A stretch of 6,871 bases of DNA from a virus. Its lineage: Duplodnaviria; Heunggongvirae; Uroviricota; Caudoviricetes. The notes under the pieces are model-generated. The model ran no database searches, had not been told where the DNA came from, and saw nothing but the letters and a program-made list of their open reading frames with translations. Shown here piece by piece: positions 1-6,871 of the stretch. A program made the translations under genes and the position numbers. The stretch lies in the IMG/VR virus record IMGVR_UViG_2690316346_000011. One strand, given 5' to 3'. How positions within the stretch are numbered: the stretch's first letter is position 1; every line of letters starts with the position of its first letter.

Positions 1-35
1 CAGCACGTTTAACGTCCTGTGCCGTTTTTCAGGTA

Positions 36-60
36 TAAAAAAACCCGCATAAAGCGGGCT
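36..60 (-). terminator. Rho-independent terminator downstream of the Q-like gene (candidate tR'-type)
   Basis: Minus strand: GC stem CCCGC (44-48) / GCGGG (54-58) with a 5-nt loop, immediately followed by a run of 7 T (complement of A37-A43). Lies about 80 nt downstream of the Q-like stop (138-140). Confidence 0.55.
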
Positions 61-119
61 CTTTCAAATGTCCATGTCTGCTATTCGCCTCGCGGTACAG
101 CTTTGCGAAGCGTACAAGA

Positions 120-148
120 ATTGAAGCAGTTTTTACGTCAAAAAGCAA
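120..148 (-). promoter_or_regulatory. Candidate late promoter (pR'-like) overlapping the 3' end of the Q-like gene
   Basis: Minus strand extended -10 TGcTTCAAT (plus 128-120) with a weak -35 TTGCTT (plus 148-143) at 17-bp spacing; predicted start near 113, giving a roughly 75-nt RNA ending at the 36-60 terminator. Motif match only. Confidence 0.2.
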
Positions 149-692
149 TAACTTTTTTCTCTATACCAAAAGCCATAACCATTGGTTTGTACAAAATAAA
201 TTCTGCCACCTTTAGCCAATGCTCAATGCGTCTTTCACAGGTTCTTAAACTCCATTTCGGGTGTGCATCATTCAGCAGTTCAGCCATTTTGCGTTTGGTC
301 ATCCCCCGCCCCTCATACCGTTGCCGAAGGACGCTAATCAATCCTGGATGCTCTGCCAGCACCTCACTTATGACCCGATCAATACATAACGCCTCTGCAT
401 CAGTACAATGCGCCAGCCAGCTCTTTTGCTTACCGTTAATCATATCCCGCAAAAAAGCCTCAAGTTCAGACTTGTTCAGACCTGCTTTTTTCATCCTCCG
501 GAGCGCCTCGTTAATTGCCGTTTTTGTCAGCTTTTTAGAGGTCAACATCAGGTTAAACATATTCCCCGTCTTACCGCCACCAATATACGACCAGCGCCCC
601 CACATACGTAGTTTTCCCTGAATCCAGACACTTTCCAGCGTGGTGAGACGAAGGTGTTCTCCGCTTTTTCCTGTATTCGTTGGGTAAATCAT
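138..692 (-). CDS. Phage antitermination protein Q-like (184 aa)
   Basis: Minus-strand ORF (track 138..812). Preferred start is ATG at 692-690, preceded by AGGAGG 7 nt upstream and overlapping the upstream stop as ATGA. It is the last gene before the terminator and follows a YbcO-like gene, as in lambdoid nin-Q regions. A W-G-x-W segment (LRMWGRWSY) recalls 21/933W-type Q proteins; this is recollection, not a search result. Confidence 0.5.
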   Translation of the reverse strand: MIYPTNTGKSGEHLRLTTLESVWIQGKLRMWGRWSYIGGGKTGNMFNLMLTSKKLTKTAINEALRRMKKAGLNKSELEAFLRDMINGKQKSWLAHCTDAEALCIDRVISEVLAEHPGLISVLRQRYEGRGMTKRKMAELLNDAHPKWSLRTCERRIEHWLKVAEFILYKPMVMAFGIEKKVIAF

Positions 693-979
693 AAATATCC
701 CTCCTTTCTCCAGATTTCTTGTGTGCGAAAAACACCTTCTGCATGCATCAGGCGTAATTCTTCTTTGGTGTAATCGCTGGTTTTTACCCGCCCGTCGATT
801 AAATCGTGGCACGAGCTACAGGCAATCGCTGCCTGCATATCGTGTGGCTTTATCGCTGTTCCGCACGTTCCCGCCAGTCGGTAATGCGCCAGCACAGACG
901 TTTCCGGATCGTGATTGCAGTAGCCAGGAATTCTGACGGTGCACATCTGCCCCCGCGCCGCTTTACGTAAATCCACCAT
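689..979 (-). CDS. DUF1364 / YbcO-like phage protein (96 aa, Cys/His-rich putative nuclease)
   Basis: ORF 689..979 translates MVDLRKAARG...CTVRIPGYCNHDPETSVLAHYRLAGTCGTAIKPHD...CSSCHD; the length and Cys/His pattern match the YbcO family of lambdoid prophages as I recall it. Start ATG overlaps the upstream stop (TAATG); stop TGA overlaps the Q-like ATG. Confidence 0.7.
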   Translation of the reverse strand: MVDLRKAARGQMCTVRIPGYCNHDPETSVLAHYRLAGTCGTAIKPHDMQAAIACSSCHDLIDGRVKTSDYTKEELRLMHAEGVFRTQEIWRKEGYL

Positions 980-1578
980 TACGCAAACTCCAGCAGCTGC
1001 GCGGCCACATTTTCGACTTGTTCCGGAGAGGAAAATTTACGGAACAGAATCCAGTTCCACAGCACATTCAGAACAGATTTATAAACCTGCTGAAACTCGG
1101 TTTCGTCCATATTCGCAAAAGCGATGGATTTTGCCCGACGCCCGCGGCTACCGTCCGGATAAAAATGTTCGGTGTAAAATCCAGCCTGAATGGTTACCCA
1201 CTCGCGAAAAGCCTCAAACGACTTTAGCAATGCCGTATCCCGGGTTCTGCGTGTCGCAACTGTATTCAGATATTGCTCTGCGGCTTCGCTCAGAGCTGGC
1301 GTATGTTCCCGACCTACTGATTCGCACAGGTAATCAACGAAACCAGACAGCAGTTCTCGTTCGCGAGGCGTGATCGCCCCACCGACCGGAGTCCAGTAAT
1401 CGAATCCCAGTTGCAGGAGTTTGAAAAAACGCTTGTGGAATGCGTAGTTACGCACACGCTTAAAGTCTGCGTGTATCCACTCACCTATTTTGATTTGATG
1501 CAGAAAATCGCAACTCTCCGGCGTCGCCGGGAGAAGTAATCCGGAAGAGGTTTGTTTGATCAGTTGTATATGCGCCAT
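979..1578 (-). CDS. Prophage protein of unknown function (199 aa, DUF1367-like by recollection)
   Basis: ORF 979..1578 starting MAHIQLIKQTSSGLLLPATPESCDFLHQIKIGEW; GGAGAA motif upstream of the ATG at 1578; stop overlaps the next start. Its 5' third is repeated at 4766-5072. The family name is from memory. Confidence 0.6.
   Translation of the reverse strand: MAHIQLIKQTSSGLLLPATPESCDFLHQIKIGEWIHADFKRVRNYAFHKRFFKLLQLGFDYWTPVGGAITPRERELLSGFVDYLCESVGREHTPALSEAAEQYLNTVATRRTRDTALLKSFEAFREWVTIQAGFYTEHFYPDGSRGRRAKSIAFANMDETEFQQVYKSVLNVLWNWILFRKFSSPEQVENVAAQLLEFA
1272..1578. repeat. Dispersed direct repeat (about 307 bp, about 97% identical) with 4766-5072
   Basis: Two copies of the DUF1367-like 5' region; flanks diverge beyond about 20 nt upstream of the ATG. 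Confidence 0.85.
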
Positions 1579-1649
1579 CGTAGTTCTCCGCTGGCGCAGT
1601 AGAATGGGTGTTCAGCCCGTTATGTAGTATACCAGAATTAATGCCAATA

Positions 1650-1862
1650 CTAACAGGATGCTCTGACTCGCAATTCATCCAGCAGTTTATCATTTCCCAT
1701 AATGTCACTTACCCTCATCGGTAAAAAAATTGCCTTTCGACCATTACGATACATCATTGATTTTTTGGTTTCAGGGAAGTAATCCATTTCGACTATAACT
1801 GACAGGTCATCACGACGTATGACTGCGTATTTACTACTAAATAGTTTCTTTATTTTTTCCAC
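1650..1862 (-). CDS. Small hypothetical phage protein (70 aa, GTG start)
   Basis: ORF 1650..1862 with GTG start (plus 1860-1862 = cac) preceded by GGAGG. It is a positional and sequence paralog of the 95-aa ORF at 5111-5398 (shared M-KI..L..FS...YAV.R.....IV and RK.GA..F segments). Confidence 0.45.
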   Translation of the reverse strand: MEKIKKLFSSKYAVIRRDDLSVIVEMDYFPETKKSMMYRNGRKAIFLPMRVSDIMGNDKLLDELRVRASC

Positions 1863-1913
1863 GATGCCTCCAGGTTTATAAGTACAAACGGTTATATCAA
1901 CATAGAGACAAAA

Positions 1914-1936
1914 GGTGATGCTGCCAACTTACTGAT
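1914..1936. repeat. IS1 left terminal inverted repeat
   Basis: 23-bp GGTGATGCTGCCAACTTACTGAT, inverted match to 2659-2681. Confidence 0.9.
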
Positions 1937-1968
1937 TTAGTGTATGATCGTGTTTTTGAGGTGCTCCA

Positions 1969-2244
1969 GTGGCTTCTGTTTCTATCAGCTGTCCCTCCTG
2001 TTCAGCTACTGACGGGGTGGTGCGTAACGGCAAAAGCACTGCCGGACATCAGCGCTATCTCTGCTCTCACTGCCGTAAAACATGGCAACTGCAGTTCACT
2101 TACACCGCTTCTCAACCCGGTACGCACCAGAAAATCATTGATATGGCCATGAATGGCGTTGGATGCCGGGCAACTGCACGCATTATGGGCGTTGGCCTCA
2201 ACACGATTTTACGTCACTTAAAAAACTCAGGCCGCAGTCGGTAA
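1969..2244 (+). CDS. insA: IS1 InsA (91 aa)
   Basis: ORF translation [46 protein letters not shown]... matches IS1 InsA as I recall it. Confidence 0.95.
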
Positions 2245-2666
2245 CCTCGCGCATACAGCCGGGCAGTGACGTCATCGTCTGCGCGGAAATGGACGAACAG
2301 TGGGGCTATGTCGGGGCTAAATCGCGCCAGCGCTGGCTGTTTTACGCGTATGACAGTCTCCGGAAGACGGTTGTTGCGCACGTATTCGGTGAACGCACTA
2401 TGGCGACGCTGGGGCGTCTTATGAGCCTGCTGTCACCCTTTGACGTGGTGATATGGATGACGGATGGCTGGCCGCTGTATGAATCCCGCCTGAAGGGAAA
2501 GCTGCACGTAATCAGCAAGCGATATACGCAGCGAATTGAGCGGCATAACCTGAATCTGAGGCAGCACCTGGCACGGCTGGGACGGAAGTCGCTGTCGTTC
2601 TCAAAATCGGTGGAGCTGCATGACAAAGTCATCGGGCATTATCTGAACATAAAACACTATCAATAA
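2163..2666 (+). CDS. insB: IS1 InsB reading frame (transposase made as InsAB' by -1 frameshift)
   Basis: ORF in the -1 frame relative to insA, translation ...[28 protein letters not shown]...; the 5' limit shown is the first in-frame start of the ORF track, while the functional product is the frameshift fusion. Confidence 0.9.
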
Positions 2667-2681
2667 GTTGGAGTCATTACC
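2659..2681. repeat. IS1 right terminal inverted repeat
   Basis: ATCAATAAGTTGGAGTCATTACC, inverted match to 1914-1936. Confidence 0.9.
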
Positions 2682-2759
2682 CAGAATGTCTATTGAAGTT
2701 CTGTTGCAAAAAAACAGTGAATTGCAGATTGTCCTGAAAACGGATGATTACCGCATAAC
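2682..2759. other. 78-bp orphan segment between the IS1 right end and the IS2 end
   Basis: Belongs to neither IS1 (ends 2681) nor IS2 (starts 2760) and does not continue the IS600-like orfB reading frame. No flanking target duplications. Confidence 0.6.
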
Positions 2760-2801
2760 TGGATTTGCCCCTATATTTCCAGACATCTGTTATCACTTAA
2801 C
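2760..2801. repeat. IS2 terminal inverted repeat (right end of the element, window-left)
   Basis: Imperfect inverted match to 4050-4090. Confidence 0.8.
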
Positions 2802-3676
2802 CCATTACAAGCCCGCTGCCGCAGATATTCCCGTGGCGAGCGATAACCCAGCGCACTATGCGGATGCCATTCGTTATAATGCTCGAACGCCTCTGCAAGG
2901 TTCTTTGCTGCCGTTAACCCGTCTGGTTTGGGCATGATACTGATGTAGTCACGCTTTATCGTTTTCACGAAGCTCTCTGCTATTCCGTTACTCTCCGGAC
3001 TCCGCACCGCCGTGTTCTTCGGTTCAAGTCCCAACATCCGGGCGAACTGGCGTGTTTCATTAGCCCGGTAGCATGAACCATTATCCGTCAGCCACTCCAC
3101 TGGAGACGACGGAAGATCGTTGCCGAAGCGGCGTTCCACCGCTCCCAGCATGACGTCCTGTACTGTTTCACTGTTGAAGCCGCCGGTAGTCACCGCCCAG
3201 TGCAGTGCCTCACGATCACAGCAGTCCAGCGCGAACGTGACACGCAGTCTCTCTCCGTTATCACAGCAGAACTCGAACCCGTCAGAGCACCATCGCTGAT
3301 TGCTTTCTTTCACGGCCACTCTGCCTGTATGTGCCCGTTTCGATGGCGGTACAGCAGGTTTTCGCTCAAGCAACAGCGCATTCTGGCGCATGATCCGGTA
3401 AACACGTTTGGCATTGATCGCAGGCATACCATCAAGTTCTGCCTGTCTGCGAAGCAGCGCCCATACCCGACGATAACCATACGTGGGCAGCTCTCCGATA
3501 ACATGGTGTATACGGAGAAGCACATCCGTATCATCAGTGTGACGACTGCGGCGGCCATCCATCCAGTCATCGGTTCGTCTGAGAATGACGTGCAACTGCG
3601 CACGCGACACCCGGAGACAACGGCTGACTAAGCTTACTCCCCATCCCCGGGCAATAAGGGCGCGTGCGCTATCCAC
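2771..3676 (-). CDS. insD: IS2 InsD (OrfB transposase, 301 aa, GTG start)
   Basis: ORF 2771..3676, translation ...[38 protein letters not shown]...[12 protein letters not shown] typical of IS2 / IS3-family OrfB; overlaps insC in the -1 frame. Confidence 0.9.
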
Positions 3677-3999
3677 TTTTTTGCCCGTCCATATTCAACG
3701 GCTTCTTTGAGGAGTTCATTTTCCATCGTTTTCTTGCCGAGCAGGCGCTGGAGTTCTTTAATCTGCTTCATGGCGGCAGCAAGTTCAGAGGCAGGAACAA
3801 CCTGTTCTCCGGCGGCGACAGCAGTAAGACTTCCTTCCTGGTATTGCTTACGCCAGAGAAATAACTGGCTGGCTGCTACACCATGTTGCCGGGCAACGAG
3901 GGAGACCGTCATCCCCGGTTCAAAGCTCTGCTGAACAATTGCGATCTTTTCCTGTGTGGTACGCCGTCTGCGTTTCTCCGGCCCTAAGACATCAATCAT
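3634..3999 (-). CDS. insC: IS2 InsC (OrfA, 121 aa)
   Basis: Translation from ATG at 3999: [56 protein letters not shown]...; the ORF-track 5' extension to 4044 is rejected. Confidence 0.9.
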
Positions 4000-4049
4000 C
4001 TGTACTCCAATGACTAGTCTAAAAACTAGTATTAAGACTATCACTTATT

Positions 4050-4090
4050 TAAGTGATACTGGTTGTCTGGAGATTCAGGGGGCCAGTCTA
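4050..4090. repeat. IS2 terminal inverted repeat (left end of the element, window-right)
   Basis: TAAGTGATACTGGTTGTCTGGAGATTCAGGGGGCCAGTCTA, imperfect inverted match to 2760-2801. Confidence 0.8.
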
Positions 4091-4092
4091 GT

Positions 4093-4722
4093 GACCGACT
4101 GGCACGTCTTCGTAAGGAGCTAAGGCTACGCTGTAAGCAGAAACGCAAGTTCAGAGCGACTACGAACTCGAACCACAATCTGCCAGTTGCGCCAAATCTG
4201 CTGAACCAGACGTTCGCTCCTACAGCACCAAATCAGGTCTGGGTGGCGGACCTGACGTATGTTGCCACACAGGAGGGATGGTTGTACCTCGCTGGCATCA
4301 AAGATGTTTATACGTGCGAAATTGTCGGCTACGCCATGGGAGAGCGCATGACAAAAGAGCTGACAGGTAAAGCCCTGTTTATGGCGCTCAGGAGCCAGCG
4401 CCCACCTGCCGGGCTAATCCACCACTCTGATCGAGGTTCACAGTACTGCGCATACGATTACCGGGTCATACAGGAGCAGTCTGGTCTGAAAACATCAATG
4501 TCGCGTAAAGGTAACTGTTACGACAACGCTCCGATGGAAAGCTTCTGGGGAACGCTGAAAAATGAGAGCCTGAGCCACTATCGTTTTAATAACCGGGATG
4601 AAGCCATCTCAGTAATACGGGAATACATTGAGATTTTCTACAATCGTCAGCGTCGTCACTCTCGTCTGGGGAATATCTCCCCGGCAGCCTTCAGGGAAAA
4701 ATATCATCAGATGGCTGCTTAA
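4093..4722 (+). pseudogene. IS3-family transposase OrfB, N-terminally truncated
   Basis: Frame translation DRLARLRKELRLRCKQKRKF...VWVADLTYVATQEGWLYLAG...HSDRGSQYCAYDY...CYDNAPMESFWGTLKNE... has the DDE-region signatures of IS3-family OrfB. The ORF-track start at 4063 lies inside IS2 and is artefactual. Confidence 0.85.
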
Positions 4723-4765
4723 AAAAAGAACAAATGGTAGTGTCCGCTATTGCCAGTACACCTCA
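4715..4765. repeat. 51-bp terminal segment of the IS600-like element, repeated inverted at 6821-6871
   Basis: 4715-4765 is the exact reverse complement of 6821-6871 by direct comparison. Confidence 0.9.
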
Positions 4766-5072
4766 ATTGCTCTGCGGCTTCGCTCAGAGCTGGCGTATGT
4801 TCCCGGCCTACTGATTCACACAGGTAATCAACGAAACCGGACACCAGTTTTCGTTCGCGAGGCGTGATCGCCCCACCGACCGGAGTCCAGTAATCGAATC
4901 CCAGTTGCAGGAGTTTGAAAAAACGCTTGTGGAATGCGTAGTTACACACACGCTTAAAGTCTGCGTGTATCCACTCACCTATTTTGATTTGATGCAGAAA
5001 ATCGCAACTCTCCGGCGTCGCCGGGAGAAGTAATCCGGAAGAGGTTTGTTTGACCAGTTGTATATGTGCCAT
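4766..5072 (-). pseudogene. 5' fragment (about 102 codons) of a second DUF1367-like gene, truncated by the IS600-like end
   Basis: From ATG at 5072 (MAHIQLVKQTSS...) the sequence is co-linear with 1272-1578 with about 8 mismatches in about 307 nt by eye, then runs into IS sequence at 4765. The ORF-track N-terminal extension to 5114 is rejected. Confidence 0.8.
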
Positions 5073-5110
5073 CGGCTTTCTCCGGTGGCACGGTGTTACA
5101 CAGCAGGAGT

Positions 5111-5398
5111 TCAATCCTGCTCAAGATTGTAGATGAGTTTATTCTTCAGCAAAAGCAGAAAACCAGCCTTAAAACCAATCTCTTTCAAAACCCGTAATGA
5201 TGTGACAAATTCGTCCTCACGCAAAATAAAACCGTCCGTCAGAAGTCCATTACAAAAATAAAATAACACAGCACCGCTCTTCCTTTGTTGAGATTGCAAA
5301 CATCTAATGCGGCAATGGCTGACAATCGCTCCATTCTCAACGCGCACAGCATAGAGGCCATTTTCACTAAAAATTTCACGCAATTCTTCGATTTTCAT
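5111..5398 (-). CDS. Small hypothetical phage protein (95 aa), paralog of the 70-aa ORF at 1650-1862
   Basis: ORF 5111..5398 with ATG start and GGAAGGA upstream; holds the same position, directly upstream of the DUF1367-like gene, as the 70-aa ORF and shares its N-terminal pattern. Confidence 0.45.
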   Translation of the reverse strand: MKIEELREIFSENGLYAVRVENGAIVSHCRIRCLQSQQRKSGAVLFYFCNGLLTDGFILREDEFVTSLRVLKEIGFKAGFLLLLKNKLIYNLEQD

Positions 5399-5516
5399 CT
5401 TCAGAATCCTTCCAGATAAATAGCTCTCCCCTGTTCGGGGTCCATCCCTCTTCTCCCTGCGCGCTACTTAAGTGAGTCGATTCTATCTGCGAAGGTGCGC
5501 GAATCAAATTCACCGG

Positions 5517-5572
5517 AAATAAACAACAAAAAACCCGCCGAAACGCTGAGAGATCACAGCGATGGGCGGGTT
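5517..5572 (-). terminator. Rho-independent terminator downstream of hok
   Basis: Minus strand: outer stem AACCCGCC (5572-5565) / GGCGGGTT (5539-5532) with an inner CGCTG/CAGCG stem (5544-5548 / 5557-5561), followed by TTTTGTTGTTTATTT (complement of 5531-5517). Confidence 0.5.
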
Positions 5573-5611
5573 AAGTGCGGGTGCGTTGAGGATGCCTGAC
5601 ACATCAGAGGT

Positions 5612-5639
5612 GGGCGGGGATGGGATCAGCTCCCCGCCC
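5612..5639 (-). promoter_or_regulatory. GC-rich hairpin 9 nt past the hok stop (candidate fbi-type 3' element)
   Basis: GGGCGGGGA (5612-5620) / TCCCCGCCC (5631-5639) perfect 9-bp inverted repeat with a 10-nt loop and no following U-run; hok mRNAs are known to carry structured 3' ends. Confidence 0.35.
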
Positions 5640-5647
5640 GGTCACTC

Positions 5648-5803
5648 TTACTTCCTGGATTCGTAGTCTACGAAGACAGCGACCTCCGTCTGGCCGGTTC
5701 GGATTCGTACCTCACAGAGGTCTTTCCTCGTTACCAGTGCCGTCACTATGACGGTTAAACAGATGACGATCAGGGCGATTAACATCGCCTTTTGCTGCTT
5801 CAT
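5648..5803 (-). CDS. hok: Hok/Gef-family type I toxin (51 aa)
   Basis: Translation MKQQKAMLIALIVICLTVIVTALVTRKDLCEVRIRTGQTEVAVFVDYESRK: a single hydrophobic helix then the conserved RKDLCEVRIRTGQTEVA motif, close to HokD/Gef as recalled. ATG at 5803 has AAGGAG 9 nt upstream; the ORF-track in-frame extension to 5860 is rejected as the start. Confidence 0.9.
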   Translation of the reverse strand: MKQQKAMLIALIVICLTVIVTALVTRKDLCEVRIRTGQTEVAVFVDYESRK

Positions 5804-5979
5804 AGCCTGCTTCTCCTTGCCTTTCGGCATGTAAGAGGCTAACCTACATGTGCAAAGCATGAAATTGGCCTCAGATTAATGTTAAGCGTCTTGCCGGACG
5901 CGTAATGTTAACTGGGGCTTTTCTCTATCTGCCTTTTGGTGTTCATGCCTGAAGCAGATAGCCTCAAGCACCCGCAGTC

Positions 5980-6009
5980 ATTCTACTTACCTCGCCAATA
6001 TGAAATCAA
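5980..6009 (-). promoter_or_regulatory. Candidate sigma70 promoter for the hok transcript
   Basis: Minus strand -35 TTGATT (plus 6009-6004), 18-bp spacer, -10 TAGAAT (plus 5985-5980); predicted start near 5973, giving a leader of about 170 nt, in the range known for hok mRNAs. Motif match only. Confidence 0.3.
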
Positions 6010-6030
6010 TCAGAAAGGTGCCCCATAAAA

Positions 6031-6717
6031 TCACTCCTTCTCTTCTTTACCGTAGTGGAGTTGACCAATTTTGATAAGAGGGCGTCCCTGAGATTTGCGG
6101 TGTAGATTGGTATCGCGCAGAGAATACACACAGCCACAATATTCCTGCTGATAGAATTTTTCGCGCTTGCTGATTTCAATCATACGGGACGAGCCGCCCT
6201 GCTTGCGCCAGTTATAATCCCAGTACACCATGCCCGGATAATGCGCGACGGCTCGCCGCCCACAGTCGTTAACCTGCTGCATATTTTTCCAGCGTGAAAT
6301 GCCCAGTGAACTGCTGATCACACTGAAACCATTTTCAGCGGCGTACAGCGCTGTCCGCTCAAAACGCATGTCAAAACACATGGTGCAACGGATCCCTCGT
6401 TCGGGCTCCCATTCCATTCCTTTGGCTCGTTCAAACCAGTTGTCTGTGTCGTAATCAGCATCAATAAACGGCACGCCGTGTTGTTCAGCAAAGCGAATAT
6501 TCTCATCCTTACGAATTAAATACTCTTTCTGAGGATGAATGTTCGGGTTGTAGAAAAAGATGGTGTAGTCGATTCCCGAGGCCTGAAGCGCCTCCATCAC
6601 CTCACCGGAACATGGAGCACAGCAAGAGTGCAGTAGTAGTTTGTTTGCCCCGTTTGGGAGCTCCAATTTGGGCCGTTTGAAATCAGCAACTGTCATAAAT
6701 ATGTTTATTGGGGTCAT
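6031..6717 (-). CDS. queH: QueH-like protein (DUF208 epoxyqueuosine reductase family, 228 aa)
   Basis: Translation carries the family signatures as I recall them: [11 protein letters not shown] near the N-terminus, [19 protein letters not shown] and YCGCVYS (Cys ligand pattern of the QueH Fe-S site). Neither candidate ATG (6717, 6696) has a good Shine-Dalgarno, so the start is uncertain. Confidence 0.75.
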
Positions 6718-6820
6718 AAAAATATCAAAGAGTGTAGCATTAGAACGGGGCTATCGGAAACAGATGTGTGACTGCTCCCCGCCCTTTCGGGTGGTCTCCT
6801 GATGATTTGAGGGTGCAGAA

Positions 6821-6871
6821 TGAGGTGTACTGGCAATAGCGGACACTACCATTTGTTCTTTTTTTAAGCAG
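6821..6871 (-). mobile_element. Terminus of a second IS600-like (IS3-family) copy, inverted; the element continues beyond the window
   Basis: TGAGGTGTACTGGCAATAGCGGACACTACC... begins with the TG terminus and is the exact reverse complement of 4715-4765, including the orfB stop region. Confidence 0.8.

Follow-up and report, generated by a model that had tools for sequence, protein, structure and literature searches.

Shigella genomes are well known for IS expansion, pseudogenization and IS-mediated rearrangement. Three described insertion sequences are relevant to the locus analyzed here. Elements of the IS1 family are about 768 bp long, carry roughly 23-bp imperfect terminal inverted repeats and the insA and insB' frames (a zinc-ribbon/HTH InsA and a DDE InsB), and are expected to be flanked by a 9-bp target-site duplication (TSD). 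IS2, a member of the IS3 family, is characterized by a length of 1331 bp, imperfect inverted repeats, orfA and orfB (HTH_Tnp_1 plus rve) and a 5-bp TSD. IS600, which also belongs to the IS3 family, measures 1264 bp when complete and is expected to leave a 3-bp TSD. A further relevant system is the short-read assembly pipeline of the Sanger Institute, which combines Velvet, SSPACE and GapFiller. The paper describing it, in which 299 S. sonnei assemblies had a mean of 405 contigs, states that 'greedy algorithms... can lead to false joins' and that repeats exceeding the fragment length force breaks (Page et al. 2016, PMC5320598).

The window, which is the whole stretch of 6,871 nucleotides analyzed in this study, is the entire record CXEQ01000243.1 (6871 bp) of the draft assembly GCA_001258815.1 of Shigella sonnei. 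Records with the CX prefix are listed as S. sonnei drafts of Holt et al. 2012. Judging from this accession series, the record was probably assembled from Illumina reads by Velvet, SSPACE and GapFiller. No finished genome in the collection examined represents the sublineage of the source isolate. The record is gap-free, with an N count of 0, and the record series suggests that its gaps had been closed. In the same series, three sister records are scaffolds that contain N runs; two of them have these runs exactly at IS600 edges. In the same two scaffolds, the junction between IS600 and the second prophage segment of the window is joined to two more partners, each different. The window record itself stops exactly 51 nt inside an IS600, as is typical of a primary contig that has run into a repeat. 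The features of the window are listed in Table 1.

Table 1. Features of the window. Prophage A and prophage B denote the segments 1-1913 and 4766-6820, respectively.
Feature	Position	Strand	Basis or remark
DUF1133 (Q-antiterminator-like), 184 aa	138..692	-	ORF; PF06576/PF06530; annotated in E. coli prophages
DUF1364/YbcO, 96 aa	689..979	-	ORF; PF07102; annotation of relatives
Complete DUF1367, 199 aa	979..1578	-	ORF; PF07105
Hypothetical, 70 aa	1650..1862	-	Last unique gene before IS1
IS1, complete	1914..2681	+	768 bp; boundaries from sequence and alignment
insA; insB'	1969-2244; 2163-2666 (in IS1)	+	ORFs; PF03811/PF12759 and PF03400 on called genes
Chromosomal fimZ relic, nt 45-122	2682..2759	+	78 bp; fimZ reading frame; 100% identity
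IS2, complete	2760..4090	-	1331 bp; PF01527 and PF00665; annotated 'IS3-like element IS2'
IS2 orfB; orfA	2771-3676; ending at 3999 (in IS2)	-	ORFs
IS600, 3' 675 bp (nt 590-1264 of 1264 bp)	4091..4765	+	Alignment to full 1264-bp copy
Second DUF1367, 5' 307 bp (4766-5072)	4719..5072	-	Cut by IS600 right end; ORF runs 15 codons into IS600
Rem-family gene, 95 aa	5111..5398	-	ORF; PF27490
hok toxin gene	5648-5803	-	PF01848; hokD annotation in relative
sok antisense RNA region	5798-5973	-	Rfam RF01794, 117 bits, E = 6e-27
Epoxyqueuosine reductase QueH	6031..6696	-	ORF; PF02677; annotation of relative
Second IS600 right end, inverted, 51 nt	6821..6871	-	Perfect inverted repeat with 4715-4765

The IS1 copy of the window agrees with the IS1 copies of S. 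sonnei in length, terminal inverted repeats and the insA and insB' frames, and is 99.6-99.9% identical to them over its full length. Its terminal inverted repeats, GGTGATGCTGCCAACTTACTGAT at one end and GGTAATGACTCCAACTTATTGAT at the other when reverse-complemented, are alike at 18 of 23 positions. The left junction reads ...GAGACAAAA/GGTGATG and the right junction ...CATTACC/CAGAATGTC, and the 9-bp TSD is absent, since the flanks are GAGACAAAA and CAGAATGTC. The IS2 copy likewise shows the length, the orfA and orfB frames and the imperfect terminal inverted repeats (2768-2800 and 4049-4081) of the described element, and is 99.9-100% identical to IS2 copies of finished genomes. It also has no 5-bp TSD (ATAAC versus GTGAC). 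At 4090/4091, its right end is fused directly to nt 590 of IS600. The truncated IS600 (4091-4765), which is 100% identical over nt 590-1264 to copies annotated 'IS3-like element IS600', retains most of orfB and the right inverted repeat TGAGGTGTACTGGCAATAG, but has lost orfA and the left inverted repeat and falls short of the 1264 bp of a complete element. No 3-bp TSD was found for it, and none is possible for a truncated copy.

The original prediction, in which IS1, IS2 and an IS600-like fragment without TSDs were piled up, was therefore right in the identities and boundaries of the elements, as judged from sequence and alignment, and in the missing duplications, since no flank pair around IS1, IS2 or the truncated IS600 forms a direct repeat. 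It had also described the three elements as abutting. This description applies to IS2 and IS600, while IS1 and IS2 are separated by the 78-bp scrap of fimZ. The statement that IS2 interrupts the orfB of IS600 was not confirmed as far as a simple insertion is concerned. The 5' half of IS600 is absent beyond IS2, both in the window and in finished genomes, and IS2 simply abuts IS600.

The 78-bp piece of fimZ is 100% identical in 3,682 of 5,426 complete E. coli genomes. Its native setting in Shigella was reached via the 83-aa IS1-fimZ-IS2 fusion ORF of the window. In the finished genome LR213449.1, the same 78 bp lie between IS1 and IS2 within the native envY-fimZ-sfmF locus, where window positions 1914-4028 are contiguous. 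On the other side of the fimZ IS1 from this piece, fimZ(1-53) is intact. Both elements are flanked there by perfect TSDs, CAGAATGTC on either side of IS1 (9 bp) and ATAAC on either side of IS2 (5 bp). The IS1 and IS2 in fimZ of LR213449.1 are simple insertions. The window copies have only one half of each of these pairs, and the right-end neighbor of the window IS2, IS600 nt 590, belongs to another IS2 copy, located at mdtG-lpxL. A search with truncated FimZ homologues in two forms gave a 3.9-kb draft contig starting from fimZ nt 121 and an error-rich assembly free of IS. The unit of IS1, the 78 bp and IS2 was found in none of the 5,426 complete E. coli genomes by a junction search. Exact-pattern scans for the IS1-fimZ and fimZ-IS2 junctions gave no hit in species-representative genomes, among which Shigella is presumably not kept separate.

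The part of the window comprising prophage A and IS1 (1-2681) is 99.9% identical to the chromosome of S. sonnei 53G (HE616528.1) and to three more finished chromosomes. All four have the same left junction of IS1 after the 70-aa gene, and beyond IS1 comes the hok region of the prophage itself. Prophage A adjoins zntB-dbpA-ttcA in finished S. sonnei, and at its junction with IS1 135 bp beside IS1 are missing in comparison with an E. coli prophage. A location of prophage A at argU, next to fimZ, combined with one IS1-adjacent deletion was considered and rejected on account of these neighbors and of the intact fimZ(1-53) past the fimZ IS1. The IS1 of the window is a mosaic of copy-specific SNPs. 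The C at 1949, 36 nt into the element, is shared with the prophage A copy in two of the four finished genomes, and the T at 2112 is that of generic copies, the prophage A copy having C there. For IS2 and IS600, no copy-specific SNPs were found, the relevant copies being identical over the stretches compared. The prophage A DUF1367 allele recurs identically in nine other assemblies, and all of them break off at the edge of IS1 or no more than 102 nt into it.

The block composed of IS2 and the truncated IS600 (2760-4765) is present without mismatch in finished genomes between mdtG and lpxL, where it is followed by the lpxL-side flank GTAATCAGGG. The adjoining part of the window (4091-6820) is 99.96% identical to S. 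sonnei counterparts, including finished chromosomes. In these counterparts, the IS600 is complete and is followed by an integrase remnant and modABC-gal. The full IS600 at the prophage B junction is flanked by ...CGAAC and ATT... and shows no 3-bp TSD. The 117-aa DUF1367 product of this junction has exact matches in 521 blocks; some of these are finished S. sonnei chromosomes, in which the adjoining IS600 is full-length. The insertion point of the second IS600, 6820/6821, was not seen in the finished genomes examined; an IS600 lies 32 nt beyond this site in CP022459.1. The two prophage segments share 300 bp of DUF1367, positions 1272-1571 being repeated at 4766-5065 with 98% identity, and they are 98.5% (A) and 99.85% (B) identical to one E. 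coli prophage. The original prediction that two different prophage modules are joined in this record was thus borne out.

Comparison with the finished genomes therefore yielded four native loci: a ttcA-side prophage (prophage A and IS1), fimZ (IS1, 78 bp and IS2), mdtG-lpxL (IS2 and truncated IS600) and the modABC-gal side (full IS600 and prophage B). These loci were documented across different finished genomes, not all in one. The prophage A and prophage B loci are 1.1 Mb apart in CBDDMI010000001.1. In JBDZZZ010000011.1, the IS2-IS600 locus and the locus with the full IS600 and prophage B are about 0.38 Mb apart, and the two IS600 copies are direct repeats. Because of this orientation, the join in the window would be the product of an excised circle or a tandem duplication, and not of a deletion or an inversion. 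The pile-up was absent from every finished genome fetched, and among the 5,426 complete E. coli genomes a search with the whole window recovered nothing more than parts, none covering at least 80% of it.

The junctions, their native partners and the TSDs of native fimZ were all demonstrated. When the junctions were mapped against related genomes, as the original prediction had proposed, every junction between a flank and an IS was found, each with a different partner across the IS. Two observations had been named there as speaking against the pile-up, and both were made in substance. Matching direct repeats exist, in that both TSDs are present at fimZ of LR213449.1 and absent in the window. 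The signs of an assembly chimera were also seen, namely four modules at four distant loci and sister scaffolds with N-gaps at IS edges. The interpretation by IS-mediated deletion or recombination fared differently for the parts and for the whole. The prophage A-IS1, IS2-truncated IS600 and IS600-prophage B junctions have no TSD in finished genomes either, and these three are therefore real products of IS-mediated deletion or recombination, a process well known in the S. sonnei lineage. For the pile-up as a whole, the interpretation is probably wrong.

On the basis of these sequence comparisons, we consider it probable that the pile-up consists of three false joins through collapsed IS repeats, namely a scaffolding and gap-filling artifact rather than a structure of the living chromosome. 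Four small unique pieces, each ending in IS sequence, would have been chained by the short-read pipeline. The first would be the end of the ttcA-side prophage, running into IS1 at its left end. The second would span the IS1 right end, the 78 bp of fimZ and the IS2 left end. The third would link the IS2 right end to nt 590 of IS600, and the fourth would comprise the IS600 right end and the prophage remnant on the gal/mod side. Generic IS sequence would then have been used to fill the interiors of the three elements. Every crossing would thereby put together a left and a right junction that come from different copies of the IS, so that no TSD could appear. We infer that scaffolding and gap filling, and not the cell, produced the joins. 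All of them lie within multicopy repeats, and in finished genomes of the same clone the two flanks of each are found at different loci. The record comes from a short-read assembly, where a repeat exceeding the fragment length would not be bridged. Like the repeat-induced false joins described for scaffolded, gap-filled assemblies (Page et al. 2016, PMC5320598), the window stems from a short-read draft series. Its three questionable links lie inside repeats (768, 1331 and 675 bp) of the kind stated there to force breaks when they exceed the fragment, the flanks come from different finished-genome loci, and the sister records are N-gapped at IS edges. As a difference, the window is free of N and has the look of a clean contig, and its three joins follow one another over just 78 bp of unique DNA.

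It is worth noting that there are other possible interpretations of this record. The arrangement could be real if three homologous recombinations between IS copies had joined the four modules, each swapping the far flank and destroying the TSD pairing. The events would be a recombination of IS1 between the ttcA-side prophage and fimZ, one of IS2 between fimZ and mdtG-lpxL, and one between the truncated IS600 at mdtG-lpxL and the gal/mod-side IS600. Shigella is rich in IS copies, and S. sonnei genomes vary by IS-mediated rearrangements, the finished genomes differing in order around these very loci. The three junctions without TSD in finished genomes indicate that such events did happen in the lineage. 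The isolate's sublineage has no finished representative, and its private IS600 junction at 6820/6821, absent from finished genomes, leaves room for further rearrangements peculiar to it. Recombination between homologous IS copies would moreover leave the same set of junctions and the same IS1 SNP mosaic as a switch by the assembler, the mosaic being what a crossover in IS1 between nt 36 and nt 199 would produce. These points count against a misjoin. Nevertheless, three independent long-range events would have to converge on 2.85 kb with only 78 bp of unique DNA, and in the one finished genome with both IS600 loci placed the two copies are direct repeats 0.38 Mb apart, so that the join would require a 0.38-Mb tandem duplication or earlier inversions. 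Short paired reads cannot cross repeats of 768, 1331 and 675 bp, so that the record is no evidence of linkage; sister records link the same IS600 to other partners across N-gaps, and the nine other assemblies of the sublineage end at IS1. We therefore regard a real arrangement as unlikely. If the record were correct, the isolate would carry a recombination hub where three IS families exchanged partners. Fused in this hub would be the two prophages, from the ttcA side and the gal/mod side, the 78-bp fimZ relic and the IS2/IS600 remnant of mdtG-lpxL, and the isolate would differ from 53G and other finished genomes by three or more inversions or duplications of megabase scale.

Successive deletions in situ next to the IS elements, which the original prediction had suggested, would have removed the DNA between elements that were once neighbors, trimmed IS600, erased the TSDs and fused the two prophage copies. 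The 135-bp loss beside IS1 at the prophage A junction is consistent with such a process, as is the IS2-IS600 nt 590 fusion, which is a real truncation; the strand of the fimZ scrap would fit a prophage A sitting at argU beside fimZ. The prophage of finished S. sonnei, however, lies beside zntB-dbpA-ttcA and not at fimZ/argU, and the fimZ scrap is found within an otherwise intact envY-fimZ-sfm locus with both TSDs present. With the modules 0.38 to 1.1 Mb apart in finished genomes, joining them would delete large parts of the core chromosome. The core chromosome between these loci includes essential genes on the E. coli/Shigella map. This explanation is thus untenable in its stated form, and we consider it very improbable. 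Finally, prophage B might have moved beside the IS2/IS600 remnant as a mobile IS600 composite transposon, given that 51-nt perfect inverted IS600 ends bracket a segment of 2,055 bp. The left IS600, however, is a 5'-truncated copy that has neither orfA nor the left inverted repeat, and the right one is interrupted where the record ends. Both inward-facing ends are right ends, with no outer duplication that could be examined. The two functional copies and the outside TSD of a composite transposon are thus not seen here. In finished genomes, the segment belongs to a prophage remnant of greater length that a full IS600 adjoins on just one side, and the unit of prophage B between two IS600 copies has so far not been encountered at another locus. 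Such a transposon is scarcely credible.

The pile-up, read as a misjoin, is most likely no real biological feature, and the IS elements, the inactivation of fimZ and the decay of prophages in S. sonnei are already known. The inactivation of fimZ by IS1 and IS2, the truncation of prophages by IS600 and IS1, and the TSD-less junctions conserved across S. sonnei all agree with the pattern of IS decay in Shigella, and nothing in the window exceeds this pattern. The biological consequence is therefore small, and the practical value is a warning for IS-rich genomes. A gap-free record derived from scaffolded and gap-filled short reads can cross several complete IS copies, and TSD-less junction pairs from such records can mimic IS-mediated deletion. 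When draft Shigella genomes are mined for rearrangements, prophage fusions or IS nesting, long-read or PCR support is needed, and the 'missing' TSD should be looked for at another locus, as was possible for IS1 and IS2 in fimZ.

A minor observation concerns the DUF1367 gene of prophage A. Its exact allele, which carries A at 1487, was found in 14 short contigs only and in none of the finished genomes. An exchange between the two DUF1367 alleles (at 1487 and 4899) by assembly cross-talk was considered at one point. This idea was dropped because five other assemblies match the window across 1487 without mismatch and all 14 contigs encode the identical DUF1367 protein. The A at 1487 may be a real sublineage variant or the result of gene conversion.

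The window is the entire 6871-bp record CXEQ01000243.1 of the draft assembly GCA_001258815.1. At the junction level it showed 99.9-100% identity to S. sonnei 53G (HE616528.1) and S. sonnei 75/02 (CP019689), and the source is therefore S. sonnei. The features of the window are listed in the table, together with the junctions that their ends form at the native loci.

Features of the window and native partner junctions
Feature	Position	Strand	Remarks
Prophage A, late-regulation end, lambdoid	1-1913	all genes (-)	sequence and ORF reading, alignment to related loci
DUF1133 Q-like gene, prophage A	138-692	(-)	ORF, Pfam, annotation
DUF1364/YbcO, prophage A	689-979	(-)	ORF, Pfam, annotation
DUF1367 gene, complete, prophage A	979-1578	(-)	ORF, Pfam, annotation
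70-aa gene, prophage A	1650-1862	(-)	ORF
IS1, complete, 768-bp	1914-2681
fimZ piece, nt 45-122, 78 bp	2682-2759		100% identity to fimZ
IS2, complete, 1331-bp	2760-4090	transposase (-)
IS600, 3' 675 bp (nt 590-1264)	4091-4765		100% identical to annotated IS600 copies
Prophage B, part of a second lambdoid prophage	4766-6820		DUF1367 start, Rem-family gene, hok/sok, queH
DUF1367 gene of prophage B, first 307 bp only	4719-5072 (truncated ORF)	(-)
hok/sok type I toxin-antitoxin locus, prophage B	5648-5973	(-)	Rfam sok, 117 bits
queH (epoxyqueuosine reductase), prophage B	6031-6696	(-)
Other IS600 right end, inverted, 51 nt	6821-6871		perfect inverted repeat with 4715-4765
Native junction, fimZ 1-53/IS1			ATCATCAGAATGTC/GGTGATGCTG
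Native junction, IS2/fimZ 118-			GGCCAGTCTA/ATAACCATCGATT
Native junction, IS1/hok region			GAGTCATTACC/AAAAAAACCGCCG
Native junction, IS600/lpxL side			CAGTACACCTCA/GTAATCAGGG
Native junction, integrase remnant/IS600			GGCCGAAC/TGAGGTAGCC

The IS boundaries and flanks quoted in the original prediction were correct on reading the window sequence. In length, inverted repeats and ORFs, IS1, IS2 and IS600 agreed with their families, save for the truncation of IS600, for which a full-length reference (1264 bp, TGAGGT... inverted repeats) was taken from a related locus. Reading of the flanks in the window gave no target-site duplication (TSD) for any of the three, as had been claimed: neither the IS1 flanks (GAGACAAAA and CAGAATGTC) nor the IS2 flanks (ATAAC and GTGAC) form a direct repeat, and the IS600 piece ends ahead of ATT, again with no direct repeat. 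IS1 and IS2 had been described as abutting; they are separated by the 78 bp of fimZ, which had been overlooked. Nor does IS2 interrupt IS600, the 5' half of which is absent across IS2 both in the window and in finished genomes. fimZ is a chromosomal fimbrial regulator gene, and 3,682 of the 5,426 complete E. coli genomes contain the 78 bp. The relic is in frame with the left-end sequence of IS2, giving an 83-aa fusion ORF (2686-2937, plus strand; 89 aa if begun at a TTG in the IS1 right end); gene calls for this ORF exist in one finished chromosome and four short contigs.

The joining of two different prophage modules was borne out by alignment: segments A and B are distinct, with 300 bp of DUF1367 common to both at 98% identity. 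Compared with the intact prophage of E. coli FDAARGOS_944, segment A is 98.5% and segment B 99.85% identical, and the counterparts of A and B would form one unbroken stretch there. The hok/sok locus and queH of prophage B are also present in that near-identical prophage.

When the junctions were mapped against related genomes, each but J5 (6820/6821) was found, with the four modules at four separate loci in finished genomes. For J1 (prophage A/IS1), window 1-2681 differs at 2-3 positions from four finished chromosomes, 53G among them. Prophage A adjoins zntB-dbpA-ttcA there by gene order, and what comes after the IS1 right end is not fimZ but the hok region of the prophage itself (AAAAAAACCGCCG...). 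This IS1 (around 9182-9949 of the finished prophage A loci L036, L040, L041 and L044) is without a 9-bp TSD (GAGACAAAA vs AAAAAAACC), and 135 bp that the E. coli prophage L005 has at 6335-6469 are gone from beside it. By this alignment, the small deletion adjacent to IS1 is real.

J2 (IS1/fimZ/IS2) is on record, by its fusion ORF, in one finished chromosome, LR213449.1. Window 1914-4028 is contiguous there in the order nfrA-ybcH-envY-(IS1-78 bp-IS2)-fimZ remainder-sfmF-sfmH-sfmD. The duplications said to be missing were found at this native locus: the IS1 flanks (...ATCATCAGAATGTC/IS1/CAGAATGTCTATT...) form a perfect 9-bp TSD and the IS2 flanks (...CCGCATAAC/IS2/ATAACCATCGATT...) a perfect 5-bp TSD. 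Many S. sonnei drafts have FimZ products truncated by the end of a contig, and one such contig begins at fimZ nt 121. The gene has been inactivated by simple insertions of IS1 and IS2. In LR213449.1 the fimZ IS2 is itself split by a further element of about 1.15 kb (9343-10493 of the fetched fimZ locus, L047), a nested IS insertion encoding HTH and DDE_3 proteins (IS630-family-like).

For J3 (IS2/IS600), window 2760-4765 is identical in the fetched loci L028 and L032, and the block also occurs in L033. Gene order places it between msyB-mdtG and lpxL-yceA-yceI; GTAATCAGGG comes after the IS600 right end, and unrelated sequence adjoins the left end of IS2. The boundary of IS2 with IS600 nt 590 is a genuine, conserved truncation, and the remnant between mdtG and lpxL is conserved. 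For J4 (IS600/prophage B), window 4091-6820 matches finished genomes with one mismatch; IS600 is complete there (1264 bp), with an integrase remnant and modCBA-acrZ-modEF-galETK beyond it. In the collection, 521 blocks have the 117-aa product specific to this junction. It arises as DUF1367 of prophage B continues for 15 codons within the right end of IS600 until it meets a stop (tail LRCTGNSGHYHLFFF), and is a handy marker of S. sonnei J4. None of the finished genomes examined has J5. CP022459.1 carries an IS600 32 nt beyond the J5 point (8202-8313 of its fetched locus, L014), and the others examined carry none; the IS600 at 6821 may be a private insertion of the window's sublineage.

The pile-up as a whole is probably an assembly chimera and not a chromosomal structure, to judge from how its pieces are placed in other assemblies, and the fusion of the prophage A and B modules through it is most likely not chromosomal. 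J1 and J4 are 1.1 Mb apart in CBDDMI010000001.1, and J3 and J4 about 0.38 Mb apart in JBDZZZ010000011.1. All three links that unite the modules fall within IS bodies (768, 1331 and 675 bp), with only 78 bp of unique DNA between them; repeats of this kind cannot be spanned if they are longer than the fragment, which forces a break (PMC5320598). Nine other assemblies with the identical prophage A allele stop where IS1 begins or no more than 102 nt into it, and the window record alone among them passes through IS1. Two sister scaffolds tie the J4 IS600 across N-gaps to two further, mutually different partners, so that this junction has four partners, counting the finished genomes, the window and the two scaffolds. 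Greedy scaffolding yields such a number more typically than biology does. The record stops 51 nt into IS600, as primary contigs do at repeats. The nearest known kind is the repeat-induced false join in a scaffolded, gap-filled short-read assembly.

A real triple rearrangement in the source isolate seems unlikely. The set of junctions expected from homologous recombination between copies of the IS elements would be identical to the one observed. The IS1 sequence bears on both readings. At 1949, 36 nt from the unique flank, the window has C, a base shared with the J1 copy of two among the four finished genomes; its base at 2112 is T, as in generic copies, where the J1 copy has C in all four. This is the pattern expected of a collapsed or filled interior, and recombination could yield the same mosaic. 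None of the finished genomes in the collection is of the isolate's sublineage, finished genomes lack the DUF1367-A allele of the isolate (1487 A), and its junction with IS600 at 6821 is private. Across 1487, five independent assemblies agree with the window without mismatch, and all 14 contigs on record encode an identical protein. That the loci were joined by deletions in situ is highly improbable, because hundreds of kilobases of core chromosome would have been removed. In JBDZZZ010000011.1 the IS600 copies of J3 and J4 form direct repeats. Recombination between them would give the link seen in the window (IS2-truncated IS600-prophage B) as an excised-circle or tandem-duplication product, and not as the product of a deletion or inversion.

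A false join also fits the probable origin of the record. CX-prefixed WGS records are assigned to the Holt et al. 2012 collection by a paper tabulating S. sonnei genomes. The Sanger assembly pipeline uses Velvet, then SSPACE scaffolding and GapFiller, greedy tools that "can lead to false joins"; the public S. sonnei assemblies listed number 299, with a mean of 405 contigs (PMC5320598). Judging from the accession series, CXEQ01000243.1 was presumably produced in this way. The sister records fetched (CXIN01, CXFC01 and CXFK01) are scaffolds with N runs, which in CXIN01 and CXFC01 lie exactly at IS600 edges (L008 11436-11446; L012 4637-4673 and 11446); the window record has no N. In these two drafts the prophage B IS600 is linked to replication genes from a third prophage, an arrangement that none of the fetched finished genomes shows.

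Taken singly, each element and junction is real and nothing unusual for S. sonnei, and the prophage remnants are cut short by IS1 and IS600. Three junctions lack a TSD in finished genomes too, and are a record of old IS-mediated deletion or recombination. The original prediction of such events therefore holds in a limited sense, for these three junctions; the pile-up as a unit is most likely not a real feature, and its parts are already known.

At two of the 14 positions that separate the two DUF1367 copies in finished genomes, the window has the allele of the other copy: A instead of G at 1487 and T instead of A at 4899 (paralogous positions 4981 and 1405). Since 1487A recurs in other independent assemblies, gene conversion or a SNP of the sublineage may explain it, and not an error. 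Several independent contigs that carry prophage A begin at window position 19, and the window record begins at 1, just short of the prophage tRNA cluster of the fetched locus L001 (tRNA-Ile 53 nt beyond), which suggests that 1-19 is another repeat boundary.
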